Assembly: GCA_002403305.1 (NCBI GenBank)
Contig: DHHM01000016.1
Location: forward strand, 58,482-122,481
Direction of reading: 5' to 3'
DNA length: 64,000 nucleotides
Source of the DNA: Bacteroidales bacterium UBA4772
GTDB taxonomy: Bacteria; Bacteroidota; Bacteroidia; Bacteroidales; VadinHA17
The notes beneath the pieces were generated by a model, which was not told where the DNA came from, did not search any database, and saw nothing but the letters and a program-made list of their open reading frames with translations. The stretch's first letter is position 1, and the number at the start of each line of letters is the position of its first letter. The translations under genes and the position numbers were made by a program. This document shows, piece by piece, positions 197 through 63,792 of the stretch.

Positions 197-214
197 CCGT
201 TATCTGATGAAAGT

Positions 215-309
215 ATGAAACTTGCATGAGCAGTAACTCACAAAAGGAGTTTATTATTTAATTTCGTGCAAGTTCCTTTAAGCCGATGAAATAAACATGT
301 TATTATCAA
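215..309 (+). repeat. palindromic cassette copy A1 (95 nt unit)
   Basis: ATGAAACTTGCATGAGCAGTAACTCACA...TTCGTGCAAGTTCC...GCCGATGAAATAAAC. The left arm is the inverted complement of the right arm. First of a tandem pair. Confidence 0.9.
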
Positions 310-404
310 ATGAAACTTGCATGAGCAGTAACTCACACCGGAAAATGATTATATTTCTTCATGTAAGTTCCATTAGACCAATAAAATAATAATCAATTAG
401 CCTA
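310..404 (+). repeat. palindromic cassette copy A2 (95 nt unit), ends exactly at the ATG of the 405 CDS
   Basis: ATGAAACTTGCATGAGCAGTAACTCACACCGGAAAATGATTATATTTCTTCATGTAAGTTCCATTAGACCAATAAAATAATAATCAATTAGCCTA followed by ATG at 405. Confidence 0.9.
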
Positions 405-635
405 ATGAAAAGAAAGATTGCATATATCGCCTCCCTCATTCTGACGGCAAGCCTCCTGACATCATGTGAGATGCTGGGCGACAACTGCCAGATATGTCAC
501 CAGGTAACATATGACAACGGTAATCCGGTCAACTACGGTGATGAAACAGAACTTTGCGGAGACGAACTCTTCGCCGTGAAGGCCAATCCGGAAACTACTG
601 TCGGCTCTGTCACCATCAGATGGGTATGCTATTAA
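405..635 (+). CDS. small Cys-rich lipoprotein, unknown function
   Basis: 76-aa ORF. N-terminus MKRKIAYIASLILTASLLTSC has a signal peptide plus a lipobox-like LTSC. Four further Cys residues. Preceded by cassette A2. Confidence 0.6.
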   Translation: MKRKIAYIASLILTASLLTSCEMLGDNCQICHQVTYDNGNPVNYGDETELCGDELFAVKANPETTVGSVTIRWVCY

Positions 636-25739: not shown

Positions 25740-25887
25740 ACTTACGGAGTTACTCCGTAAAAGTATGAAAAATTCATCATATAATAATTTACTCCATTTG
25801 TATGAAAGCCTGTCCCGGTTTATGGGAGAACCTCCATGTATCAGATTATTATTTACTTGTATTTGTGTGTGATAACACATGGAGGTT

Positions 25888-27117
25888 TCAGAAACTATAC
25901 CTGATCCTTAAGAAGCCAAGATTAAGCTTCGTCTCTGCGGAGGCCAGACGCATGTCAAAATGTTGCCAGAGTAATGAGAAATCGACATTCTCAGCCAGTG
26001 AAACATCCACTGAAGGGCCGGCGTACCATCCATCCATGTCAGGGTACCACATGGCTGAAAGTGATATACTGAGAAGGGGCATCGGCGCCCATGTCACCTG
26101 TCCTACGGCGCTGAATTCCGAGAAGGCAAGGTCTCTGGCCGTCAGGCCCCCCTTATAAAGCACGGTGAAACTGTCGAGTGATAGCGGGCGGTTTGAGTAC
26201 ATCAGCTGCACAATGGCGGTCAGCCTGTCAGAGAAGACCCTGTCAACGCCGGCGGTGGCAATCACGGTGCTCCCTTCATGCTCTGATCCGTCAAAAGGGG
26301 AAAAGAGTGTTGCCTCACCCCTGACGGAAAAGGGCCCGACGGCTCCTGACCATCCGGTGCCGGCGGTGAATAACTCCTCATCGGTCTCTCCGGCAAGAAA
26401 CTGGAGGTCGGTGTTCAGCAGGCTGAAGCGGAAGAGAGCTGCGGCGGTGAACCGGCCCTGGCTGTTGATCTTGACGGCAGCCTCGGCAGCTGACGATGGG
26501 CCGGTGGAATATACCAGCCTGACGGCGTCACTGCCCGGACGCTCAACATAGTCGAAATCAAAAAATGAGTAGGTGTTGAAGATGTCATTGGGGTTCCATA
26601 CCAGCGACTGGCTCCAGTTGATGCGCTGGCGGCCGGCGGTGATCTGCAGCCTGCCCAGCGTGAAGTCAGCGTATGCCCTGTCGATCATCGAATTCAGGAC
26701 ATAGGAGTTGCCGTCGGATATGTTCCATGAAAGGTCAATCCATCCGTCGTCGGTTGCCAGTCCTGACACATAACCGGGATCGAGCGCAATCATGTCGCCG
26801 GTGACAAACCTGTTCCTGATCTCTAAAGCAAAAGTGAACCTACTTCCTGCCCAGGCTTTGAAGTTTAGCCTGTTATGAAGCATGCTGCTGTTGATCCAGG
26901 TTTCTGCAGGCTTTTCGAACATGGCAGTATGGAGCCATGAGGCATACCCCCCGGCAGTGAGGCTGACCATCTTCTCTTTCTCTTCCGGAGGATCCGTGAT
27001 GACGCCGTTCATCTTCAGCGTATCACTCTTAGCAACGCCGGGGTCGATGCCGGTAAGGGCGACAGACTGCAGCATTGCGGCAAACATCATAACTGCCGGA
27101 AGGAGTGTTCGCATCAT
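25888..27117 (-). CDS. predicted outer-membrane beta-barrel protein, last gene of the ABC/LolA_like cluster
   Basis: Signal peptide MMRTLLPAVMMFAAMLQSVA. Alternating beta-strand pattern. C-terminal ...LGFLRIRYSF with a terminal aromatic residue. 4-nt overlap with the ATPase gene. Confidence 0.6.
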   Translation of the reverse strand: MMRTLLPAVMMFAAMLQSVALTGIDPGVAKSDTLKMNGVITDPPEEKEKMVSLTAGGYASWLHTAMFEKPAETWINSSMLHNRLNFKAWAGSRFTFALEIRNRFVTGDMIALDPGYVSGLATDDGWIDLSWNISDGNSYVLNSMIDRAYADFTLGRLQITAGRQRINWSQSLVWNPNDIFNTYSFFDFDYVERPGSDAVRLVYSTGPSSAAEAAVKINSQGRFTAAALFRFSLLNTDLQFLAGETDEELFTAGTGWSGAVGPFSVRGEATLFSPFDGSEHEGSTVIATAGVDRVFSDRLTAIVQLMYSNRPLSLDSFTVLYKGGLTARDLAFSEFSAVGQVTWAPMPLLSISLSAMWYPDMDGWYAGPSVDVSLAENVDFSLLWQHFDMRLASAETKLNLGFLRIRYSF

Positions 27118-29267: not shown

Positions 29268-30683
29268 TTAGGCTCTGATAGCATTTATTATGTTCAATTT
29301 GAATATCCTCCGCACACTGAATGTGATGGCTATGAGCAGTATCAGCAGCACAATCGCTGCCTGCCACAGGTAGTAGGTGTCCGGGAGATGCATGGGCATC
29401 ACCGCTTCAAAGCCGTACTCCTCGTACATCTTTGCCAGCTCCCCGGTGAAGCGCAGGGGCCTTGCATAGCCATAGTAGACAATGGGCAGTGATGCTGCAA
29501 TACCTGCCAACACACCCAGCAATCCGATGAACAGCATCTCCATGCTTACTATGCCGGCCAGCTTACGCTTCTGCATCCCTATAGAGACCAGCATGCCGAA
29601 CTCCCTCCTCCGTTCAGCCATCATCATAAGTACTGTACCGGATACGCCAAAGGCTATCACCAGGTAAAGGATGCCTATCATGATTGCCCCGCTCTTGTTG
29701 TCAGCCTCCATCTGGTTCAGCAGGAGGGCATTCATCTCCTTCCAGTTGCGTATTACCAGCCCGTCATTGCAGGAGGCGGACAGCCGCTGTTGCGTTTGCA
29801 GAAGCTCCCTGTCATCTGTATCGCTTATACTTATTATGGCCGAGGTGACCATTTCGGGTGCAGCATAGAGATACTGTGCATCTGCCAGGGTGATGTAAAC
29901 AAATGCATTGTCAATCTCGGGGTTTGGCATGCTCACTATACCCTTTATCACGAAGAGTCCGGCTGCGGATACCCCGTGATAGCCCTGTCCCATCACCACC
30001 AGGGTGTCTCCAACGTCTGCGCTGAGATAACGCGACAGTCCGTATCCTATAACCGCCCGGCCGGAATCTGCCGAAGTGAGGTAACGGTTGTCGAGTGATG
30101 CATACTTCCTGAAGAGAGGCATCACTGCTGCTGAATCATCATCGCCTATGCCGAGGTCAGAGATGAGGCTCTTTTCATCGGTCCAGGCCTCACCGGAAAA
30201 TACATCGACCAGCTTAGCGGTGCGGGACGGCAGGTTTTCTCCTTTAAGAGCTTCGGTTGCATCAGGAGTAAGGCGGTATTTTATGAGACGGTTCTTTATG
30301 TTCAGCGTCTTCTGCTCATTGTCGGGATCCATGCCGATCACCATCACACCCCGGGTGCGACTCCCGGCAGCTGCCAGCGCGAACGATTCCAGCTTTGGAA
30401 TAACCCCCGTTACATTGGGGTCTGCCTCTATTATGTCAGTCAGCGACTGCTCAGGAACAAACCCGTTGTCAAGATTTGATTCATCAAGGTAGTCACTGTG
30501 CTGAAGCTGCAGGTAACCGGAGTATGATTCGATGACATCCCTGTACATCTTTTCGTATGTACCCAGCTGAAACGACCTCATCACCAGTGCAAAGAAGACT
30601 GCAAAGAATACCGAGGCTGCCGTTATGAGGGTCCTCCTTTTGTTTCGCCATAGATTTCTCCAGGCAAGCTGATAGTTCTTCAT
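29268..30683 (-). CDS. FtsX/MacB-type ABC permease, paralogue of the preceding gene
   Basis: WRNLWRNKRRTLITAASV TM1, a large periplasmic insert, and a C-terminal FtsX domain. Preceded by cassette copy B. Confidence 0.88.
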   Translation of the reverse strand: MKNYQLAWRNLWRNKRRTLITAASVFFAVFFALVMRSFQLGTYEKMYRDVIESYSGYLQLQHSDYLDESNLDNGFVPEQSLTDIIEADPNVTGVIPKLESFALAAAGSRTRGVMVIGMDPDNEQKTLNIKNRLIKYRLTPDATEALKGENLPSRTAKLVDVFSGEAWTDEKSLISDLGIGDDDSAAVMPLFRKYASLDNRYLTSADSGRAVIGYGLSRYLSADVGDTLVVMGQGYHGVSAAGLFVIKGIVSMPNPEIDNAFVYITLADAQYLYAAPEMVTSAIISISDTDDRELLQTQQRLSASCNDGLVIRNWKEMNALLLNQMEADNKSGAIMIGILYLVIAFGVSGTVLMMMAERRREFGMLVSIGMQKRKLAGIVSMEMLFIGLLGVLAGIAASLPIVYYGYARPLRFTGELAKMYEEYGFEAVMPMHLPDTYYLWQAAIVLLILLIAITFSVRRIFKLNIINAIRA

Positions 30684-30776
30684 TCGATTATCTTATTATT
30701 TCATTGGTCGAAAGAAACTTACATGTAGTAAAAACAATCATGTCCAATTGTGAGTTTCTGTCCATGTAAGTTTCAT
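30684..30776 (-). repeat. palindromic cassette copy B (93 nt), intercistronic
   Basis: Minus-strand reading: ATGAAACTTACATGGACAGAAACTCACAATTGGACATGATTGTTTTTACTACATGTAAGTTTCTTTCGACCAATGAAATAATAAGATAATCGA, then ATG at 30683. Confidence 0.88.
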
Positions 30777-30798
30777 GCCAGTGGATATTTGATGGACA

Positions 30799-31569
30799 CT
30801 ATCTGATGGTCTTCATATTCTGCTGTGAGAAGAAGCTCTCCTCAATCTTTACATTGAATTTTACCTCTGTTATATTAAGGATGGTCTTGCGGCCCGGCTC
30901 CTCGGCGGGGATCAGTTCAATGGTGGTGGGTATAAACCTTCCGTCCATTGTCCTGAGATCACTGCCCCGCTCCGTTCTGACCAGGTAGCCGTCCTCATCA
31001 TAGAGCTCGGCTTTCAGGACAATAAACTCATTTTTATCAACCCACCACAGCTGGTGACTCCAGAGAACGTCGGCATCATCCTTTGCCGTCAGCCTGATCT
31101 TGTGGCACATGCGGCCGTCGATCTCCTCCTCTCCCTCGAAAGTGTGGGTGTAGTCTTCCACCACGGAGGACTCCCTGAGGATATCATCATTGGTGTAGTC
31201 TGACCCCATCCAGCCCTGCGACATCATTGAGGGCGGCAGCTTGATAAGCCTGTTGATGGCGGGATTCCAGCTCCACATCTCCGTGCCCCGTTTGAGAAAT
31301 GTCTGTCCCTTTTCGCGCGCCGGCGCGGTGATTAGCGTGAGGGCATAGTCATCTTCCAGGGCCCACGATTTGAATTCTATTGTGCGCTGCCATGAGGAGC
31401 GCACGATGGTCATGCTCATGACGCTGTAGCCCGAGAGCTCACCGTTGAATTTCTCGTCTGTTTTTTTGATTATTTCTTTGGCGCTCAGCTGCTGCGCGGT
31501 GGCCGGCCCGCTTGCCGGCAGCAGGAGGAGCATTGCGATGCCTGTGATTATCTGACCTGTTAGTTTCAT
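30799..31569 (-). CDS. LolA_like periplasmic protein (outer membrane lipoprotein-sorting protein family)
   Basis: Signal peptide MKLTGQIITGIAMLLLLPASGPATAQ. IKLPPSMMSQGWMGSDYTNDDILRESS matches my recollection of the LolA_like family. Confidence 0.8.
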   Translation of the reverse strand: MKLTGQIITGIAMLLLLPASGPATAQQLSAKEIIKKTDEKFNGELSGYSVMSMTIVRSSWQRTIEFKSWALEDDYALTLITAPAREKGQTFLKRGTEMWSWNPAINRLIKLPPSMMSQGWMGSDYTNDDILRESSVVEDYTHTFEGEEEIDGRMCHKIRLTAKDDADVLWSHQLWWVDKNEFIVLKAELYDEDGYLVRTERGSDLRTMDGRFIPTTIELIPAEEPGRKTILNITEVKFNVKIEESFFSQQNMKTIR

Positions 31570-31665
31570 TAGATTATTTGTTTATTATTATATTGGACTA
31601 ATGGAACTTGCATGAAGTTTACAGTCATTTCCCCGGGAGGAGTTGCTGCTCATACATGGTTTCAT
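31570..31665 (-). repeat. palindromic cassette copy C (96 nt, left arm degenerate)
   Basis: Minus-strand reading: ATGAAACCATGTATGAGCAGCAACTCCTCCCGGGGAAATGACTGTAAACTTCATGCAAGTTCCATTAGTCCAATATAATAATAAACAAATAATCTA, then ATG at 31569. Its head ATG overlaps the stop of the upstream ORF (ATGA). Confidence 0.8.
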
Positions 31666-32057
31666 CTGTATCTTTTTATCAGTGCGTCTGTTACCTTTTC
31701 ATAATATTCACCCTGATACTGTTCTTCAGAGAATATGGAAGTGATGGCAAACCCCTTGATCGCATTTATAAACATGAGCAGATCGGTCATCGGGTTATAG
31801 TCCGGACCGGCGTTCTCTCCCTTCTTCCGGAAGTATTCCACCAGGAGGCTCATCATGCTTTCGGTGTATTCCCTGAAAGGTCTTCCTGATATTGATAAGG
31901 ACCCTGACTCCTCCCCGAATAGTTTCTCATAGACTCCGGGCTGTATCATTATTCTGAAGAGCAGTTTCCGGAACTGCCTCTTCTCATGAAGCACTTTAAA
32001 TACTTTCCGGATTTGCAGAAAGTGTTGAAAATAAAATATATGTAGTAATATTAACAT
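31662..32057 (-). pseudogene. ORF of unknown function, possibly the C-terminal remnant of a TetR-like regulator (no HTH present)
   Basis: 131-aa helical ORF in the position where such clusters often carry a regulator. The frame is closed by in-frame stops at 32070-32072 and 32088-32090, so no DNA-binding N-terminus can be encoded. The family assignment is a guess. Confidence 0.3.
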
Positions 32058-39196: not shown

Positions 39197-39384
39197 TTCC
39201 TTCAGGGTCGCCAGGCAAGTACTGGTTTTGTGAGCTCCGGCGGTCTTTTTTCCATTCCGTCGGACCGGAAAGCCTCCGGTTTCATTGCTGAAGCAGGCAA
39301 ATTCTTACTGTTTTCCTGATAGCTGTAACCTTTTCTGATTTCTCACCGGGCTTTGCAATTTCTCTCATATTTTTACCGGAGAGC

Positions 39385-39411
39385 TGTAACATTTGCCGTC
39401 TTACGGCCGTC
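39385..39411 (+). promoter_or_regulatory. candidate ECF-type autoregulatory promoter TGTAAC-N17-CGTC
   Basis: TGTAAC at 39385-39390, a 17-nt spacer, and CGTC at 39408-39411, 27 nt upstream of the sigma-factor ATG. AAC...CGT architecture is typical of many ECF promoters. Confidence 0.5.
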
Positions 39412-39437
39412 TTTATGTTGTCAGTGCATTGACCTGA

Positions 39438-39923
39438 ATGACCGTAAAAGAGTACAATAACGCCGTCAGGGAGTTCGGTGACCATGTTTACCGGTTCATC
39501 TTCCGCAGTATCAAGGACAGCCACAGGGCTGACGATATCGTACAGGACAGCTACGAAAAGCTGTGGCGGAACGTTACTGAAATAGAGTACTGCGCCGTGA
39601 AATCATGGCTCTTTTCAACGGCATACAACAGGATGATTGATGTTATCAGGAAAGACTCCAGGCTGGTAGGCGTGGAGTATTACGATGACAGTTCACTATA
39701 TGCGGAGGAGAACGGCAGCGACCTTAACGAGGTGCTGCACAGGGCCCTGGAGACCCTTCCGCCGGCCCAGCGATCGGTAATTCTCCTGCGTGATTACGAA
39801 GGGTACAGCTATAAGGAGATAGCTGACATCACCGCACTCTCTGAGGCACAAGTCAAGACCTACATCTTCAGGGGACGTGTGGCTCTCAGGAACTATCTGG
39901 TAAAGACATCGGTATGGCAATGA
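39438..39923 (+). CDS. ECF (sigma-70 family group 4) RNA polymerase sigma factor
   Basis: 161 aa. Region 2 (DIVQDSYEKLW...W Lfstaynrmid) and region 4 (LPPAQRSVILLRDYEGYSYKEIADITALSEAQVKTYIFRGR). Confidence 0.9.
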   Translation: MTVKEYNNAVREFGDHVYRFIFRSIKDSHRADDIVQDSYEKLWRNVTEIEYCAVKSWLFSTAYNRMIDVIRKDSRLVGVEYYDDSSLYAEENGSDLNEVLHRALETLPPAQRSVILLRDYEGYSYKEIADITALSEAQVKTYIFRGRVALRNYLVKTSVWQ

Positions 39924-41071
39924 CAGAAAATACAGACTTCCCACACCTTACACCCCGGGACGACAGGCTGCAGGGCGAAGGGAAGCTGTTCCGCCGGCCG
40001 GAGGAGCTTACTGATGAGCAGTTTGATCTCCTCGCTGCCGCGTGGGCCGATGATGCTCTCGGCGGCGACAGTCTCGCAGAGACAGAGGCGGCGCTGTCCT
40101 CCAGTCCTGAAAGAAGGATGCGCGCTGAAAGCTTCCGGCAGATCAGGCTCTCTCCTCTGATTGACAGGTGGGAGGGCAGGAACCGAATACTGAAAGCTGA
40201 TCCGGGTACCTACGCCATCAGGCGCATACTGATTGTCACACTGACTGTCGCCGCGGCACTGGGAGCCCTGGTAATCCTGGGCCCGTTAAAAACGGAACCC
40301 GACAACAAATCAGCGGGTCCGGCTGTTGCTGAGGCACAAAAAATTGGTGAGGCCATAACAATAGCTGAAGCACAGACAATGGGTGAGGCCCTCATCTCCG
40401 AAGCATCACCGGTGATCGTGGCCCTGCCGGCAGAGAGTGTGACTCCTGCGACACAAAATATTAATCAAACTGCCGGTGCGGCTAACCCATCCATTGACAA
40501 AACAAGCAGTACCCGGTTGGCCGGTGTCATCTCCGGATCTGCTGCTGACATAACGAGTAAGCCGCGGCCAGTCGGGGTGATCCCGGAATCACTTAAGCCG
40601 GAAAGAATAGTGCCGCAACAGAATGATATTACTGCCTCAGTTACCAACTCATTCATCCACGCTAATAGTGAGCCGCGAACCACCGCGGAAATTGCTGAAT
40701 ACCGTGATCTGGCAGAGTCTATTGCCTTGATGCATGATTTTTCGGGTGCAGTGCCCCTGCTGGCTGCCGGACCGGAAGCATCCCGCCTGGCTCCGGTGGA
40801 GCTTAAGGATATAACCCCTCTTCCTGCTCTGGAGAGAGAGGAAAACTGGCTGGTGAGAGGTCTCTCACTGCTGGCGGAGGCCATAACAAAAGAACCGAAA
40901 AGTGTTGACGGATACTTTATTGCCGATGCCTGCATCAGAGGAGTAAACAGAGTGCTGGGCTGGGAAATGGAGCTCGAACAGGAGAAAAATAATGAAGGGG
41001 AGCAACTTGCAACGAATTTCAGCTCTTCACTGCTAACCTTCTCTGCCCCGGCGAAAAAAACTCATCCCTGA
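39914..41071 (+). CDS. putative anti-sigma factor (single-pass membrane protein)
   Basis: Overlaps the sigma gene by 10 nt. N-terminal cytoplasmic segment, one TM helix (ILIVTLTVAAALGALVILG), and a low-complexity periplasmic part with an AEAQxxGEA repeat. Confidence 0.55.
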   Translation: MAMTENTDFPHLTPRDDRLQGEGKLFRRPEELTDEQFDLLAAAWADDALGGDSLAETEAALSSSPERRMRAESFRQIRLSPLIDRWEGRNRILKADPGTYAIRRILIVTLTVAAALGALVILGPLKTEPDNKSAGPAVAEAQKIGEAITIAEAQTMGEALISEASPVIVALPAESVTPATQNINQTAGAANPSIDKTSSTRLAGVISGSAADITSKPRPVGVIPESLKPERIVPQQNDITASVTNSFIHANSEPRTTAEIAEYRDLAESIALMHDFSGAVPLLAAGPEASRLAPVELKDITPLPALEREENWLVRGLSLLAEAITKEPKSVDGYFIADACIRGVNRVLGWEMELEQEKNNEGEQLATNFSSSLLTFSAPAKKTHP

Positions 41072-41113: not shown

Positions 41114-41183
41114 CAGAAACTTGCATGAGCAGAAACTCACAGCAGTAAATGACTACTACATTCATGCAGGTTCCATTCGACCA
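41114..41183 (+). repeat. palindromic cassette copy D1 (70 nt short form, lacks A/T tail)
   Basis: cAGAAACTTGCATGAGCAGAAACTCACAGCAGTAAATGACTACTACATTCATGCAGGTTCCATTCGACCA. A tail-like remnant CCACCAATAAACAACA lies just upstream. Confidence 0.85.
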
Positions 41184-41277
41184 GTGAAACTTGCATGAGC
41201 AGGAACTCGCAACAGGTTTTGATTGTCAAATTCATGTAAGTTCCATTCGACCAATAAAATAATAATTATATAACCGA
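41184..41277 (+). repeat. palindromic cassette copy D2 (94 nt)
   Basis: GTGAAACTTGCATGAGCAGGAACTCGCAACAGGTTTTGATTGTCAAATTCATGTAAGTTCCATTCGACCAATAAAATAATAATTATATAACCGA, then ATGAAATAA. A duplicated 25-nt tail follows, then the gene ATG at 41303. Confidence 0.9.
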
Positions 41278-41302
41278 ATGAAATAATAATTAAATAAACG
41301 CC

Positions 41303-42484: not shown

Positions 42485-42652
42485 TTTGGCGCAACAGCGC
42501 GGTCAGCAGAGTGTTGTACATTTGGCACAACAGCACATTCAGAAGAGCGGGCCGCAGGGCGTTGTATATTTGGAACAACAGCGCATTCAGAAGAGCGGGC
42601 CGCAGGGCGTTGAAGATTTGACGCAGCGGCACGTGTCGCAGAGCGTTGAAAC
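42485..42652. repeat. tandem array of four 36/48-bp units upstream of pepE
   Basis: Units begin with TTTGG/TTTGA at 42485 (36 bp), 42521 (48 bp), 42569 (48 bp) and 42617 (36 bp). The 48-bp units carry a 12-nt insert CGGGCCGCAGGG. Confidence 0.9.
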
Positions 42653-57277: not shown

Positions 57278-58650
57278 CGGAGAAAGAGTTTAAAAGATCA
57301 GTGCTGACGGTCACTGCCTTCGCCTCATTTCTGACCCCTTTTATGGGTTCGGCGGTCAACCTGGCACTCCCCTCCATCGGTGAGGAGTTCAGTCTCAATG
57401 CCGTCACCCTCAACTGGATTGTCAGCAGCTACATGCTTACCACCTCCATGCTGCTCCTTCCTGCAGGAAGGGCCGGGGATATACTGGGACGCAGGAAGAT
57501 CTTCACCGCGGGGATGATTGTTTTCACTTTCTCGATGATACTTCTGACCTTCACCCCCGGCATACGATGGCTTATCGCTGTAAGGATACTGCAGGGGGTG
57601 GGAGGAGCCATGATGTTCGGCACAAACATGGCGATACTGACCTCGGTCTTCCCTCCCGGAGAGAGAGGCAGGGCCATGGGAATAAATGTCACGGCAGTAT
57701 ATGCCGGCCTTGCCTCAGGACCCTTTCTGGGAGGGTTGCTGACGCGCTATCTGGGCTGGAGAAGCATCTTCGCCTTTCTAATACCCATGGGAATTATCAG
57801 CCTGATACTTATCCGTACCCGCATGAAGAAAGAATGGGCTGATGCCAGGGGCGAGAGTTTCGACTGGCAGGGATCGGTGGTCTACGGTCTGGCGATGGCG
57901 GCACTGATGTACGGCTTCTCCAAACTGCCCTCGCCGGCGGGGTGGATCATAACAGGCGCCGGCCTGTTGCTCATGCCGCTCTTCATCATGAGGGAGAAGA
58001 GAGCAGTTCACCCGCTGTTCGACATAACACTCATCTCCAGAAACAGGGTCTTTGCCTTTTCAAGCCTCGCCGCACTTATCCATTATGCCGCCACCAGTGC
58101 CGTAGGCTTCTTTCTGAGCCTGTTCCTGCAGTATATCAAGGATATGGGACCCCGTGACGCGGGGTTCGTGCTCATGTCATTGCCTGTCACAATGACACTG
58201 ATATCACCTCTTGCCGGCAAGCTGTCAGACCATCATAACCCGGGAGTGCTCGCCTCCATAGGCATGGCCATATCCACGGCCGGACTGATATTACTCTGCT
58301 TTCTTACCGAACAGACTTCGATTCTGTTCATTGTTGTGGTACTGCTGATTATGGGAGCCGGATTCTCGCTCTTCTCATCACCAAATTCAAATGCCATAAT
58401 GAGCTCCGTTGAGAAAAGACAGCTGGGAAATGCCTCAGGCATGCTTGGCACCATGAGAAACGTGGGCCAGACATTCAGTATGGCAATAGCACTGATGCTG
58501 CTGGCACTCTACATGGGTCAGGAAAAGATCGGCCCGGCAAACTACCCTCAGCTGATGAATTCGATGAAGAGCGCGTTTATCGTCTTCTCCGTCCTCTGCT
58601 TAGCGGGTGTTTTCGCCTCCCTGGCGCGAAATAAAAATCTTCGGCGGTAG
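57274..58650 (+). CDS. MFS transporter, 14-TMS DHA2 (EmrB/QacA)-like
   Basis: 458 aa with ~14 hydrophobic segments and the GRAGDILGRRKIF motif A. 4-nt overlap with dtd. Confidence 0.9.
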   Translation: MTEKEFKRSVLTVTAFASFLTPFMGSAVNLALPSIGEEFSLNAVTLNWIVSSYMLTTSMLLLPAGRAGDILGRRKIFTAGMIVFTFSMILLTFTPGIRWLIAVRILQGVGGAMMFGTNMAILTSVFPPGERGRAMGINVTAVYAGLASGPFLGGLLTRYLGWRSIFAFLIPMGIISLILIRTRMKKEWADARGESFDWQGSVVYGLAMAALMYGFSKLPSPAGWIITGAGLLLMPLFIMREKRAVHPLFDITLISRNRVFAFSSLAALIHYAATSAVGFFLSLFLQYIKDMGPRDAGFVLMSLPVTMTLISPLAGKLSDHHNPGVLASIGMAISTAGLILLCFLTEQTSILFIVVVLLIMGAGFSLFSSPNSNAIMSSVEKRQLGNASGMLGTMRNVGQTFSMAIALMLLALYMGQEKIGPANYPQLMNSMKSAFIVFSVLCLAGVFASLARNKNLRR

Positions 58651-58680
58651 CCTTAACTCTACTTTTTGTTTGCTTTTCAT

Positions 58681-58774
58681 TCGGTTATTTAATTATTATT
58701 TTATTGGTCAAATGGAACTTACATGAATTTGACAATCAATACCTGTTGCGAGTTCCTGCTCATGCAAGTTTCAT
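58681..58774 (-). repeat. palindromic cassette copy E2 (94 nt)
   Basis: Minus-strand reading: ATGAAACTTGCATGAGCAGGAACTCGCAACAGGTATTGATTGTCAAATTCATGTAAGTTCCATTTGACCAATAAAATAATAATTAAATAACCGA, then ATG at 58680..58678. Near-identical to D2. Confidence 0.9.
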
Positions 58775-58845
58775 TGGTCGAATGGAACTTACATGGAGTA
58801 AAACAATCATAACCTTTTGCGAGTTGCTGCTCATGTAAGTTTCAT
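58775..58845 (-). repeat. palindromic cassette copy E1 (71 nt short form)
   Basis: Minus-strand reading: ATGAAACTTACATGAGCAGCAACTCGCAAAAGGTTATGATTGTTTTACTCCATGTAAGTTCCATTCGACCA. Confidence 0.88.
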
Positions 58846-58917
58846 TAAAAACAATTAAATTGACCCCTGTTTGCCTGAGGGCAGATAATGTCTGTTTTTT
58901 ATTACATATCATTAATT

Positions 58918-59790
58918 ATGACTAAATTATACAAGAAACTACTGAACCACGACTACTCACCCGGGGAGATGGGTGAATGCATTACCGAGGCTCAAAGGAT
59001 GACCACTTCAGTGGAGAGAGGCCCTCTTTTGAAAGATATTTTTTCCATGATTGACCTGACAAGCCTCAACACCTCCGACAGCGAAGGAACAATAGGCAGT
59101 TTTGCAGAGAGAGCAGCTTCATTCCGTTACAGTTTCAGCGGGATAAACAATGTTGCCGCCCTCTGCGTCTATCCCAACTTTATCACCGTTGCCCGCCAGG
59201 GCCTGAGCGACTGCGGGATCAGGCTTGCTGCCGTCGCGGCATCCTTTCCCACCTCCCAGACATTCCTGGAGATCAAGACTCTGGAGACGGCACTGGCAGT
59301 AAGGATGGGCGCTGATGAGGTTGATGTGGTCATTCCCGTGGGAACATTCCTTGAAGGGGCATACGAAAAGGTGATAGATGAACTGAAGGCTGTAAGGCAG
59401 GCAGCAGGAGAGGCTACCCTCAAGATAATACTGGAAACGGGGCTACTCAAGGACGAAAGGAACATCTACAGGGCATCTATAATCGCCATGGATACCGGTG
59501 CTGATTTTATCAAGACCTCAACGGGAAAGAGCCCTGTCTCCGCAACACCCGAGGCAGCATGGGTGATGTGCCGTGCAATACGTGACTACTGGAATGAGAC
59601 CGGCATAATGGTTGGCTTTAAGCCCGCAGGCGGGATTGTCACTCCTGATGATGCCCTGGTCTATTATTTCATCGTCAGGAACATGCTTGGAGAAAAATGG
59701 CTGACGGCTGAATACTTCAGGATCGGCGCATCAAGACTTGCCAATAACATACTGGCAGAACTGTACCCCGGCAAGCCTGCCTTCTTTTAA
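58918..59790 (+). CDS. deoC: deoxyribose-phosphate aldolase (long form)
   Basis: DLTSLN..., EVDVVIPVG, LKIILETG, ADFIKTSTGK (Schiff-base lysine). Start at MTKLYKK (58918). Confidence 0.9.
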   Translation: MTKLYKKLLNHDYSPGEMGECITEAQRMTTSVERGPLLKDIFSMIDLTSLNTSDSEGTIGSFAERAASFRYSFSGINNVAALCVYPNFITVARQGLSDCGIRLAAVAASFPTSQTFLEIKTLETALAVRMGADEVDVVIPVGTFLEGAYEKVIDELKAVRQAAGEATLKIILETGLLKDERNIYRASIIAMDTGADFIKTSTGKSPVSATPEAAWVMCRAIRDYWNETGIMVGFKPAGGIVTPDDALVYYFIVRNMLGEKWLTAEYFRIGASRLANNILAELYPGKPAFF

Positions 59791-61521: not shown

Positions 61522-61914
61522 ATGACACGGAAAAAGGCATCACTGGTTAAGGGAGAAAGGCTCTGCGGGGTAAAGGCCGTCAGCGAACTCTTTGCCCGAG
61601 GAAAGTTACTGAGCGATCCTCCTCTCAGGATAATATACAGGACAGCCCCGGCAGAGAAATCGCTGAGCACCGTAAGAGTGCTCATATCAGTTCCGAAAAG
61701 AAATTTCAAAAAGGCAACTGACCGCAACCTGATAAGAAGGAGAATCAGGGAGGCATGGAGGCTCAACAGAATGCCCCTGATGGAGAGGCTCGACGGCAGC
61801 GGCAGGCGCATGGACCTTGCCATCATATGGAATGACACTCAGATAAGGCCTTATGACTTTGTGGTGAAGTGTGTCACCGGGGTGATCAGCAGATTGACGA
61901 ATCTTAAATATTAA
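61522..61914 (+). CDS. rnpA: ribonuclease P protein component
   Basis: LISVPKRNFKKATDRNLIRRRIREAWR RNR-motif region. 130 aa. Confidence 0.85.
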   Translation: MTRKKASLVKGERLCGVKAVSELFARGKLLSDPPLRIIYRTAPAEKSLSTVRVLISVPKRNFKKATDRNLIRRRIREAWRLNRMPLMERLDGSGRRMDLAIIWNDTQIRPYDFVVKCVTGVISRLTNLKY

Positions 61915-61919
61915 CTTTG
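61912..61919 (+). promoter_or_regulatory. candidate -7 promoter box TAACTTTG
   Basis: TAnnTTTG match that begins with the rnpA stop codon, 14 nt upstream of cassette copy F1. Confidence 0.35.
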
Positions 61920-61933
61920 TGAAAACGGTCTTT

Positions 61934-62026
61934 ATGAACTTGCAAAAGCGGGGACTCTCAATAGGAGATGACGTTAAAACTTCATGCAAGTTCAATCCGG
62001 CCAGTAAAATAAATATTTATACACGA
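61934..62026 (+). repeat. palindromic cassette copy F1 (93 nt, degenerate)
   Basis: ATGAACTTGCAAAAGCGGGGACTCTCAATAGGAGATGACGTTAAAACTTCATGCAAGTTCAATCCGGCCAGTAAAATAAATATTTATACACGA. Confidence 0.8.
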
Positions 62027-62121
62027 ATGAAACTTACAAGAGCAGTAACTTACAATAGGTAATGATTATTTCTCTTCATGTAAGTTCCATTAGACCAATA
62101 AAATAACAATCAAGTAATCTA
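62027..62121 (+). repeat. palindromic cassette copy F2 (95 nt), ends at the ATG of the S41 protease gene
   Basis: ATGAAACTTACAAGAGCAGTAACTTACAATAGGTAATGATTATTTCTCTTCATGTAAGTTCCATTAGACCAATAAAATAACAATCAAGTAATCTA, then ATG at 62122. Confidence 0.9.
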
Positions 62122-63792
62122 ATGAAAAGAGGCAACAGAAAGAGAATATTGCTGATACCGGTGATGGCACTGGCAGCTATGCTTGCGTTGGGGTTTCTGA
62201 TGGGCGGACAGGAGAGCAAGGACTTCAAGCTCACCAGGAATCTTGATATATATATATCGCTTTTCAGGGAGCTGAACGCTTTCTATGTAGATGAGATAGA
62301 CCCTGAAAAGCTTGTCACAAGAAGCATCACAGCGATGCTTTCAACCCTCGATCCATATACTGTCTACTACCCAGAAGAGGAGCGCGAGGATCTCGATTTC
62401 CTCACCACCGGGAAATACGGCGGTTTTGGCTCCCTGATAAGAAAGTCAGGTGACTATATCGTTGTCACCAATGTCTACCGGGGGTTCCCTGCCGACAAGA
62501 ACGGCATCAGGCCGGGTGACATGATGCTTAGTATTGACGGCACATCACTCAAGGGAGTATCCTCCGAGAAGGCTTCTGACATGCTCAAGGGCGAGCCGGG
62601 GACTGCGGCTGAGATAACCTTCAGACGCAACGGGGAAGAGTTTGCGAAAACCATAAAGAGAGAGAGGATATCTATCTCTGCAGTGCCCTATTACGGGATG
62701 ATCGATGATAACACCGGATATATCCGGTTCACCAATTTCACACAAAACTGTATCGCTGAGGTGAGGGATGCTGTCACCGACCTGAAGGATAACCTTGGTG
62801 CCACTGATCTGATACTGGACCTCAGGGGCAATCCCGGTGGCCTTGTCAATGAGGCCGTGGAGATTGTGAATCTGTTTGTTAGGCCCGGACAGGAGGTGGT
62901 GAGCACCAGGGGAAGGGCAAAACAGTATGATGCCGTTTTCCGTACATCCAGAACCCCGGTGGCCCCCGATATGCCGGTGGTGGTCCTGATAAACAGAGGC
63001 TCTGCATCCGCTTCGGAGATAGTGGCCGGGGCATTGCAGGACCTTGATCGCGGGATCATCGTCGGAGAGAGGTCCTACGGCAAGGGGCTGGTGCAGGTGG
63101 CCAGGCCCCTGAGCTACAAGGCACAGCTTAAGGTGACCACGGCAAAATACTATATCCCCAGCGGCAGATGCATACAGGCTGTCGATTTCTCCCACAGGAA
63201 CGAAGACGGCAGCGTAGGACAGATACCGGATTCGCTGATAAAGACATTCACCACCAGGAATGGCAGGCCGGTGAAGGACGGCGGTGGCATCATACCTGAC
63301 CTGCAGGTGGAGTCAGACATGTTCAGCCGCTTCACCAGCGAACTCTATGTTCAGAACATGGTCTTTGACTTCGCCACGGAATACTACTGGTCGAAACCGC
63401 AGCCATCGTCACTCGACAGCCTGAAGGTGACCGACAGTGACCTGGAGCGTTTTGAACAGTTCCTCCGGGATCGCAATTTCTCATACAGCACAGGTTCGGA
63501 ACTTATGCTTGAGGAGCTCGCCTCCGCGGCCAGAGAAGAGAATCTATATGACGCCAACAGCAGTGAGATTGAGAATCTGAAGGCCGGTCTGAGCCATTCG
63601 CTCGACAGGGATATGACTGCACAGAAGAGCGATATCATTGAGCTGCTGGAGTCGGAACTGGCAGGCAGGTATTTCTACGATGCCGGTTCGGTGAGATATT
63701 CGCTGAAACGCGACAGACAGGTGCAGGCAGCAATGGAAATAGCAGGAGACAGGATGCGCTACAACAACCTGCTGAAAGGTGCAGGAGAGTAA
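62122..63792 (+). CDS. S41 family C-terminal processing peptidase with PDZ domain
   Basis: N-terminal membrane/signal anchor, PDZ (GIRPGDMMLSIDG), LDLRGNPGG, LINRGSASASEIVAGALQD. Confidence 0.92.
   Translation: MKRGNRKRILLIPVMALAAMLALGFLMGGQESKDFKLTRNLDIYISLFRELNAFYVDEIDPEKLVTRSITAMLSTLDPYTVYYPEEEREDLDFLTTGKYGGFGSLIRKSGDYIVVTNVYRGFPADKNGIRPGDMMLSIDGTSLKGVSSEKASDMLKGEPGTAAEITFRRNGEEFAKTIKRERISISAVPYYGMIDDNTGYIRFTNFTQNCIAEVRDAVTDLKDNLGATDLILDLRGNPGGLVNEAVEIVNLFVRPGQEVVSTRGRAKQYDAVFRTSRTPVAPDMPVVVLINRGSASASEIVAGALQDLDRGIIVGERSYGKGLVQVARPLSYKAQLKVTTAKYYIPSGRCIQAVDFSHRNEDGSVGQIPDSLIKTFTTRNGRPVKDGGGIIPDLQVESDMFSRFTSELYVQNMVFDFATEYYWSKPQPSSLDSLKVTDSDLERFEQFLRDRNFSYSTGSELMLEELASAAREENLYDANSSEIENLKAGLSHSLDRDMTAQKSDIIELLESELAGRYFYDAGSVRYSLKRDRQVQAAMEIAGDRMRYNNLLKGAGE

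Follow-up and report, generated by a model that had tools for sequence, protein, structure and literature searches.

The described systems closest to the repeat reported here are small hairpin-forming DNA elements. Palindrome-associated transposable elements (PATEs) derive from IS200/IS605 and are moved as single-stranded DNA by Y1 transposases of the HUH type. MITEs (miniature inverted-repeat transposable elements), such as Correia in Neisseria and ERIC in enterobacteria, are non-autonomous. The pneumococcal BOX element is assembled from boxA, boxB and boxC modules; mycobacterial interspersed repetitive units (MIRUs) lie between the genes of operons; and repetitive extragenic palindromes (REPs), with the mosaic elements built from them (BIMEs) and the RAYT transposases, are abundant hairpin repeats. 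Here, we describe a repeat found in a 64,000-nt stretch of Bacteroidales bacterium UBA4772 (contig DHHM01000016.1, positions 58,482 to 122,481 of the forward strand; referred to below as the window, whose own coordinates are used throughout). Our focus is locus E, a minus-strand pair of hairpin units at 58675-58846 between a gene for a major facilitator superfamily (MFS) transporter and deoC. This segment is probably an orphan insertion of a mobile repeat that is small, modular and non-coding and targets the heptamer AATGAAA.

Results

Layout of the insertion between the MFS gene and deoC

The MFS gene stops at 58650, and locus E starts 25 nt beyond it; the conserved ATG of deoC is at 58918, and gene callers favor a start at 58888. 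Read in the minus sense, locus E has exact limits at 58675-58846 and consists of two 70-nt hairpin units (E1 and E2) and a 24-nt AT-rich tail, with every piece bounded by an AATGAAA heptamer. Its parts are as follows.

58840-58846, minus strand: distal heptamer AATGAAA, one of two target copies and the 5' foot of the E1 hairpin; relatives without the inserted cassette of units and tail have one TTTCATT here
58776-58839, minus strand: body of unit E1, 64 nt, with the arms of helix P1 at 58846-58831 and 58796-58781
58769-58775, minus strand: internal heptamer AATGAAA, the E1/E2 junction; single-unit relatives have AATAAAA and then the old tail directly
58706-58768, minus strand: body of unit E2, 63 nt, with P1 arms at 58775-58760 and 58726-58711; without counterpart in L018, L058 and L047
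58682-58705, minus strand: 24-nt AT-rich tail, composed of AATAAAA (58705-58699) and TAATAATTAAATAACCG (58698-58682); forms the loop of helix P2 and matches the tail at locus D
58675-58681, minus strand: proximal heptamer AATGAAA, spacer sequence that predates the insertion (the target) and holds an orphan ATG at 58680-58678
58600-58680, minus strand: 26-codon open reading frame (ORF) MKSKQKVELRLPPKIFISRQGGENTR, beginning with ATGAAAAGC at 58680 and antisense to the MFS 3' end; not a gene

Unit E1 is matched by nhmmer at 75 bits (E = 1e-21) and folds at -16.4 kcal/mol (z = -3.1). In helix P2 of this locus, CATTTG (58714-58709) pairs with CGAATG (58683-58678).

The initial annotation of this DNA, made from the sequence alone, had described two minus-orientation units between the MFS end and deoC with no gene on their sense side and a start, ATGAAAAGC, that opens only a 26-codon ORF. 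The sequence and the ORF list bear this out, and the spacer of related genomes leaves no room for a gene. The accompanying idea that ATGAAAAGC is a stranded start module did not hold, as the heptamer is already present in 20 cassette-free relatives and is thus neither carried by the module nor the remnant of a lost gene. We rejected a small protein (MKSKQKV...) from the ORF at 58680; in many relatives, the minus-strand frame from the same ATG reaches TAA after 4 codons (ATGAAATGCAAATAA).

Empty and filled target sites

We retrieved 45 deoC loci from metagenomes for an empty-site comparison. A unit was present upstream of deoC only in the two closest of these loci (96% and 93% deoC identity), with one unit each, and no unit was found anywhere across up to ~9 kb in loci at 85% deoC identity or less. 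In the cassette-free relatives (n = 20; 68 to 85% deoC identity), the spacer reads ...CTTTTTrTTTGCwTTTCAyTAAAAACAATTAAATTGACCC.... When 58682-58846 is removed, the window is collinear with these 20 spacers, column for column, in an alignment of 21 spacers. This collinearity with empty sites indicates that the cassette was inserted into a pre-existing TTTCATT (AATGAAA in the minus sense), which now stands on both sides of it.

Two further loci of the same repeat family in the window, F and B, have empty sites of the same kind. At locus F, the empty site is ...TAACTTTGCGAAAACAGTCTTTATGAAGAGA in ~20 relatives, and the filled site reads ...GTCTTTATGAA, followed by the units, ...CTAATGAA and AAGAGG (the right side also being given as CTAATGAAAAGAGG). 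At locus B, the empty sites in L094 and L095 are ...ATC ATGAAAGATTATCAG (in extended form, ...ATCATGAAAGATTATCAG). The sequence standing on both sides of the insert is AATGAAA at locus E, ATGAA at locus F and ATGAA(A/G) at locus B, and both orientation and target specificity held at these three independent sites. On these alignments, the target is the heptamer (A)ATGAA(A/G). This asymmetric target fixes the orientation of the element, which accounts for the constant 24-nt spacing and for the units pointing at genes. By the same comparison, the target at E is a chance heptamer in non-coding DNA rather than a start codon, and no gene was ever lost there. At locus C, the stop TGA of the upstream gene overlaps the ATGA of the left heptamer (31663-31669, minus strand); this locus was probably an ATGA stop/start overlap originally, duplicated by the insertion with both genes left intact.

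The comparison with related genomes that had been proposed for this intergenic region thus revealed both presence/absence polymorphism and target-site features: there is one unit in sister lineages and none in more distant relatives, and the strains vary by a single 24-nt tail. None of the relatives had a full-length minus-strand gene in the interval from MFS to deoC.

History of the pair and copy number of the tail

In the sister lineages BF4_172 (L018), L058 and L047, E1 is followed by the tail AATAAAATAAGAATCAAATAAACG and then by AATGAAAAGC, with no E2. The window's species has an additional segment of ~94 nt, E2 plus a tail, between E1 and the old tail. The old tail is kept in strains L002 and L005 (24 nt just after the MFS gene; columns 65-88 of alignment A1) and has been lost in the window strain and on four other contigs. 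A repeat search aligned 41163-41283 at locus D with 58675-58795 over 121 nt at 95% identity, and a segment of locus D with a heptamer at each end (41184-41276) shows 3-4 differences in ~100 nt from E2 plus its tail, in line with the ~125 nt and ~4 differences noted earlier between E2 and D2. E2 plus tail is also nearly identical to D2 plus tail of another species. The near-identity of E2 and D2, together with the strain polymorphism, upholds the initial suggestion of recent duplication or mobility, and 41184-41276 is, judging from the sequence match, the likely source of E2 and its tail. The flanks shared by D and E measure ~27 and 24 nt.

These alignments show an order of events in which E1 with one tail was inserted first, in the common ancestor of the lineages that share 93% deoC identity or more; this species then gained a module of the D2-plus-tail type between E1 and that tail, and some strains later lost the old tail. 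E2 and the extra or lost tails may have arisen by gene conversion or slippage between heptamers. The combination of an older, diverged unit with a younger, consensus-like unit next to the gene also occurs at loci A and F in comparison with BF4_172. The copy number of the 24-nt tail varies elsewhere too. Strains of a single species carry one or two tails at E; at D (41260-41302), there are two in this genome and in WOFB09 and one in C14-10; and two tails are also present at several other loci (L012, L019, L029 and L033).

The repeat family in the window and in other genomes

The window contains 10 units of this repeat at six loci, A to F. The two arm patterns each have 8 matches in the window, against 0.00 expected, and nhmmer and cmsearch give E values of 1e-13 to 1e-21 for the window units. 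The loci other than E are as follows.

Locus A, 213-410, plus strand: A1, tail, A2, tail; a small lipoprotein gene begins at the tail ATG (405)
Locus B, 30684-30778, minus strand: one unit and tail; the ATG at 30683 starts an FtsX-like permease gene
Locus C, 31564-31665, minus strand: one unit and tail; the ATG at 31569 starts a LolA-like gene, and the upstream gene's stop codon overlaps with the left heptamer
Locus D, 41114-41283, plus strand: D1, D2 and two tails, upstream of an outer membrane protein (OMP) beta-barrel gene that is started by the ATG of the second tail
Locus F, 61934-62127, plus strand: F1, tail, F2, tail; the ATG at 62122 starts an S41 peptidase gene

The ATG at the tail end is the true gene start at A, B, C, D and F, and E is the sole exception in the window. 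An exact-pattern scan with one genome per species found 37 further loci in ~13 uncultured Bacteroidales species-level metagenome-assembled genomes. The tail ATG opens a genuine ORF in 36/44 arrays, nearly always as ATGAAA or ATGAAG, and the downstream genes belong to many functional classes, including a response regulator, FabG, formate-tetrahydrofolate ligase, a ROK kinase and AccC.

Each unit is 70 nt long with 30-40% G+C and, like the 24-nt tail, contains no ORF beyond 4 codons. A full module measures ~87 nt plus the 7-nt flanking repeat and is made up of hairpin P1, a short spacer (xGACC) and the AT-rich tail ending in Cx'AATGAAA. The left half of the unit is AATGAAACTTRCATGAGCAG; the right half is CATGYAAGTTCCATTnGACC plus the tail. 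The inverted repeat is internal, the 3' arm of P1 lying 25-30 nt from the right end. A conserved loop ORF (ATGATT...) was rejected, since loop indels of 1-3 nt break the frame.

The family appears to be undescribed. Rfam gave no match at the gathering threshold across the window and only chance-level matches (E >= 0.36) at a permissive threshold for 58600-58950, and no copy of the repeat was found in phage, plasmid and IMG/VR collections. The literature, searched by description and by sequence strings, yielded no account of it; the nearest reports concern the P. gingivalis MITE/BrickBuilt elements and the Beggiatoa TAACTGA repeats, neither of which is related to it.

Several variant or neighboring repeats were observed. 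Between two minus-strand genes, a hairpin at 25819-25892 (minus strand; GAAACCTCCATGTG...ACATGGAGGTTC) matches the unit model weakly (E = 0.002); its arms are similar to those of the unit, the changes being compensated, and a tail-like AAATAATAATCTGA lies in its loop. It may be a diverged relative of the family. At 2299-2475 of L027, between a TetR-like gene and typA, there is a unit consisting of the left half only (model positions 4-48), with a tail-like ATAAACGAATGAAA ~115 nt further on; it may be a rearranged or variant element, and we rejected its interpretation as the end of a longer autonomous element. In L021 (AS09scLD_223) and L028 (AS06rmzACSIP_518), a variant copy is flanked on both sides by AATTACGTGT instead of AATGAAA, its 3' arm is altered to CATACG with pairing to CGTGTG retained, and no gene follows. 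A separate 48-nt repeat is present as three tandem copies (83% and 67% identity to the first) at 42496-42639, between the OMP beta-barrel gene and an S51 peptidase gene.

Two mutually exclusive hairpins

Helix P1 is a hairpin of 16-17 bp (AATGaAACTTRCATGA / TCATGYAAGTTcCATT) with a loop of ~33 nt. Across 54 distinct units, 86% of its cells are paired, compared with 23-44% when the partners are slid, and it covaries at pair 14-62 (AU 25, GC 19, GU 8) and pair 12-64 (UA 47, UG 3, CG 2). A second helix, P2, had escaped the initial annotation. In P2, the segment adjoining P1 on its 3' side, CAUUxG, is paired with Cx'AAUG, which comprises the last part of the tail and the start codon; 97% of cells are paired, compared with 21-49% with slid partners, and the x-x' pair is CG 15, AU 8, UA 1, GU 1, UG 1 and other 1. 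The covariation supports two hairpins maintained under selection, the second of which is predicted to pair the start codon. P2 uses the same strand, UUCCAUU, as the foot of P1 (AAUG/CAUU), which makes the two mutually exclusive. An A.C mismatch is conserved in both helices in 45/54 copies. P1 at its 5' foot and P2 at its 3' foot mark the boundaries of the element, and the left heptamer opens a 4-codon upstream ORF (uORF; ATG AAA CTT GCA TGA) inside P1. Inner loop helices (GAG/CTC and AACTCA/TGATT) had no consistent covariation.

Sequence constraint on orthologous copies

As a gauge of constraint, we compared the identity of orthologous copies with the third-codon-position identity of the adjacent gene, using a codon-aware comparison for the gene at D.

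B against L092: copy 66%, third positions 65%
C against L092: copy 58%, third positions 67%
F1 against L018 (BF4_172): copy 68%, third positions 68%
A1 against L011 (BF4_172): copy 83%, third positions 67%
D1 against L025: copy 93%, third positions 61%
D1 and D2 against L017: copy 98%, third positions 85%
D1 and D2 against L037: copy 97%, third positions 89%
E1 against L018 (BF4_172): copy 96%, third positions 76%
E1 against L047: copy 79%, third positions 68%

By this measure, B, C and F1 decay at the neutral rate, A1 is intermediate, and D1 alone as well as D1 with D2 are clearly conserved. E1 is equivocal, being conserved in one comparison and near neutral in another; its comparison with L058 is uninformative because the MFS flank is also 97% identical. 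Most copies thus behave like passengers, and a few look constrained. The E1-E2 pair is most likely a tolerated passenger, which would be transcribed, if at all, as antisense within the MFS 3' region or the region upstream of deoC.

Sequence upstream of deoC

The insertion interrupted a ~35-nt block, GTTTGCwTTTCAyTAAAAACAATTAAATTGACCC, that is near-invariant upstream of deoC in relatives down to 68% protein identity and far more conserved than its surroundings. In the window, it spans 58668-58681 and 58840-58866 on either side of the cassette, and the alignment of 21 spacers resolves two parts.

58668-58674, plus strand: left part of the block, GTTTGCT
58847-58866, plus strand: right part of the block, AAAAACAATTAAATTGACCC, with the perfect palindrome CAATTAAATTG at 58852-58862

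Owing to the duplication of the heptamer, the right 27 nt of the block are still intact next to deoC. From its conservation and position, the block is probably the promoter or an operator of deoC. Between the block and deoC, at 58868-58900, there is a hairpin (TTGCC-loop-GGCAA) whose pairing is kept through differing sequences in relatives, with a T-rich run before the deoC ATG; a terminator scan flags it, and it may either terminate the MFS gene or form a leader structure of deoC.

Discussion

The empty sites at E, F and B carry our interpretation of locus E as an insertion of a mobile repeat. In the mechanism we propose, the element would integrate in one fixed orientation at (A)ATGAA(A/G), leaving the heptamer on both sides. 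Genes of these Shine-Dalgarno-independent Bacteroidales commonly begin with ATG-AAA, which would explain why most surviving copies sit on start codons facing the gene, insertions within genes having presumably been purged. The upstream heptamer would become the start of the 4-codon uORF buried in P1, and the real AUG would become paired in P2, on the strand shared with the foot of P1. Primary insertions may be made by a trans-acting enzyme that recognizes the single-stranded hairpins and the heptamer at their feet, as IS200/IS605 enzymes do, and this enzyme possibly reads the heptamer by pairing with the internal TTCCATT.

Several observations weigh against this interpretation. No transposase domain was found among the 40 window proteins, and a crude tblastn with approximate IS200 TnpA and E. 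coli RAYT queries returned nothing below E = 0.03 in 627 kb around repeat copies. There are no terminal inverted repeats (left end AATGAAACTTGCATG versus complement of the right end TTTCATTCGGTTATT). The heptamer at the flanks fits three readings alike: a target-site duplication, a target plus an element end, or the microhomology of an enzyme-free template switch. The E2 step could be ectopic gene conversion as easily as re-insertion, considering the ~27- and 24-nt homologous flanks at D and E. The 37 loci in other genomes were selected by an exact 22-nt match, and the conservation of the matched columns is therefore partly ascertainment. Wobble pairs (32 G.T versus 18 A.C) offer a weak asymmetry for assigning the functional strand. 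Lastly, the identities of D1 (93% versus 61%) and E1 (96% versus 76%) argue for a host function of some copies, possibly including E1.

This last point bears on a second explanation, which we regard as possible yet doubtful: that the repeat is a host cis-regulatory RNA leader, a mobile riboregulator in which P1 and P2 alternate to expose or hide the AUG, possibly set by uORF translation or by a factor that binds the conserved loop GAGCAGnAACUCAC, and that E landed where it is inactive. The history of insertions set out above would fit such a role, the sole difference being the force that keeps the copies in place. In its favor, the start codon is paired in P2, which covaries at a position outside both the target and the coding sequence; P1 covaries as well; the two are mutually exclusive through UUCCAUU, and RNAfold gives one or the other depending on the copy. 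Conservation of D1 and D2 is well above that of synonymous sites. At F, a native -7 box, TAACTTTG, lies upstream of the units, which places them in the 5' leader. This sequence (61912-61919) is a perfect Bacteroidetes -7 box (TAnnTTTG). The native leader of the S41 peptidase gene would be very short, since the box stands 14 nt before the ATG in cassette-free relatives, and F1 and F2 lengthen it to ~200 nt in the window. On the other hand, the orthologues of B, C and F1 decay neutrally despite their start-codon position, P2 is short and AU-rich with a loop of ~28 nt and is only marginally stable as RNA, the downstream genes have no functional theme, and single-strand DNA transposition would need the same hairpins.

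We can also imagine, tentatively, a combination of insertion and host function, namely an undescribed class of mobile translation-start modules. These would be guided by their hairpins, recognize ATG-AAA via the internal TTCCATT and insert in one orientation without gene damage. They would replace the native leader with the competing P1 and P2 and rewire hundreds of loci, with some copies (D1/D2 and perhaps E1) under selection.

We think it rather unlikely that the copies spread without a dedicated enzyme, with AATGAAA heptamers as the sites of microhomology-mediated template switching, of slippage and of ectopic gene conversion, and the hairpins helping to stall replication. Every module type (hairpin only, tail only or both) is bounded by the heptamer and variable in number, E2 has homologous flanks of ~25 nt in D and E, and no transposase was found in the window or in the 627 kb around the copies. 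Insertions into naive sites (E, F and B), however, would need two precise switches on 5-7 nt of homology, many times per genome (six loci in 64 kb) and in ~13 species. In addition, the A.C mismatch kept in most copies and the strongly conserved arms look like features recognized by a protein.

The initial annotation had offered two reasons why the pair might have been retained at E. The first was an antisense promoter: the plus-strand face of E1 and E2 would act as a promoter of the extracytoplasmic function (ECF) sigma type that drives or modulates deoC. The strings on which this was based, GGAACTT-N15-TCAAT (58714-58740) and GGAACTT-N16-TCATA (58784-58811), are indeed present at those positions and match the E. 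coli sigma-E consensus, GGAACTT-N16-TCAAA. The insertion also split the block that may be the deoC promoter or operator, such that a replacement could be needed, and E1 is more similar between the window and BF4_172 than the third positions of deoC are (96% and 76%). Against this, the string is composed of the 3' hairpin arm and the ATGATT loop motif of the family. GGAACTT-N14-17-TCAW has six matches in the window (0.23 expected by chance), all of them repeat copies, and four of these face away from any divergent gene. The window has a single ECF sigma gene (39438-39923), and the promoter-like site of that gene is a different one, TGTAAC-N17-CGTC. In L047, E1 has decayed to TGTAACTT with altered spacing next to an intact deoC, and the conservation in L058 says nothing, as the neighboring MFS gene is equally similar. 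A scan for sigma-70-type promoters found nothing in the cassette, and inspection of the unit for Bacteroidetes -33/-7 boxes revealed only partial matches with wrong spacing. An antisense promoter is therefore an improbable reason for the retention of the pair. Sigma-54 and attC readings were rejected on inspection of the sequence.

The ECF sigma gene itself is preceded by two GCTGTAAC motifs (39320-39415), the second followed by CGTCT after 17 nt, which together form a candidate autoregulated promoter typical of the ECF type. The gene after it (39914-41071), which has no Pfam match and is followed by locus D, probably encodes an anti-sigma factor.

The second proposed reason was that the hairpins terminate the MFS gene; read on the plus strand, they might also stabilize the 3' end of its mRNA in the manner of REPs and BIMEs. 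The plus strand does fold well (-45 kcal/mol for 201 nt; z = -2.9), and the pair begins shortly after the MFS stop. However, neither hairpin is followed by a U-run (AUUGGUC and AUUAAAAAC follow), the terminator scan flags nothing in 58675-58846, and the 20 relatives with the same gene pair and a spacer of ~60 nt manage without such a hairpin. The covarying hairpin with its T-run at 58868-58900 is a better candidate, and the family lies overwhelmingly at the 5' rather than the 3' ends of genes. We consider a terminator function very unlikely.

The erosion of a minus-strand gene that once began at the ATG at 58680, leaving its start module behind, would fit the position of most family members on gene starts but is refuted by the relatives' spacers, where MFS and deoC are adjacent with the same heptamer and no room for a gene, and by the remaining ORF, which is antisense to the MFS C terminus and in many relatives stops after 4 codons.

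If the target of the mobile repeat is truly the start-codon heptamer, this would be an element in nature that exchanges the 5' leaders of numerous unrelated genes and leaves the genes themselves intact. Translation initiation in Bacteroidetes proceeds without Shine-Dalgarno pairing and is poorly understood; the same gene with and without the inserted leader provides a ready comparative data set for leader structure and initiation in this phylum. The repeat is also a candidate for a new sequence-guided, orientation-specific integration mechanism, and the copy numbers of tails and units could serve as strain-level markers for uncultured digester Bacteroidales. For annotation, the repeat explains "stranded" start-like sequences and spurious short ORFs such as 58600-58680, and it cautions that conserved promoter-like strings can be by-products of a repeat.

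Among the known systems, the PATEs resemble this repeat in being small and non-coding without terminal inverted repeats, in having hairpins at both ends with boundaries at the hairpin feet (here supported by the covariation of P1 and P2), and in their strictly oriented insertion beside a short specific sequence. The complementarity of the internal TTCCATT to the target likewise recalls their guide/target pairing. They differ in that the target here is 7 nt and stands on both sides, whereas IS200/IS605 elements insert without a duplication and usually have unlike cleavage sites on the left and right. Furthermore, both hairpins of the repeat draw on one central strand, its 16-bp hairpin is long and encloses a 33-nt loop, and no Y1 transposase has been linked to the repeat.

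MITEs such as Correia and ERIC share the size of ~100 nt, the many copies of a non-autonomous element and the short flanking duplication, and they too can be co-transcribed with their neighbors, form long hairpins and be polymorphic in presence between strains. The present repeat, by contrast, is without terminal inverted repeats, duplicates a fixed 7-mer (Correia and ERIC use TA), keeps a fixed orientation relative to genes and varies its hairpin and tail modules independently. BOX elements are similarly modular, with module numbers (boxA, several boxB, boxC) that vary by locus and strain, and they are intergenic, transcribed and hairpin-forming with no known dedicated transposase. Their sequence and phylum are different, they do not target start codons, and their modules are not bounded by a shared heptamer.

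MIRUs also lie in the direction of transcription, with the stop and start of neighboring genes overlapping the repeat ends and a tandem number that varies by strain. A comparable overlap is found here at loci C and B only (TGA in the left ATGA and ATG in the right heptamer); E, A and F lack it. In MIRUs, translation runs through the repeat as a small ORF and a long hairpin is absent, unlike in this repeat, whose tail has stops in all three frames and whose only reading frame is the 4-codon uORF. REPs and BIMEs are often paired, structurally constrained and possible targets for other elements, in which they are similar, yet they are GC-rich imperfect palindromes of 20-40 nt with a conserved 5' tetranucleotide, arranged as inverted pairs mostly at gene 3' ends, whereas the present units are AT-rich, 70 nt long and in direct tandem at 5' ends; a RAYT was not found by tblastn with the approximate query in the 627 kb around the copies. 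Integron attC sites are a poor match, as the arm ends ATGAAAC/GTTCCAT misfit the core sites RYYYAAC...GTTRRRY and the copies are dispersed on both strands among housekeeping genes, whereas attC sites stand 3' of cassette ORFs in one-directional arrays. The family is thus best filed among small hairpin repeats of the MITE, PATE, BOX and MIRU kind, from which its targeting of a start heptamer and its start-codon-pairing helix distinguish it.

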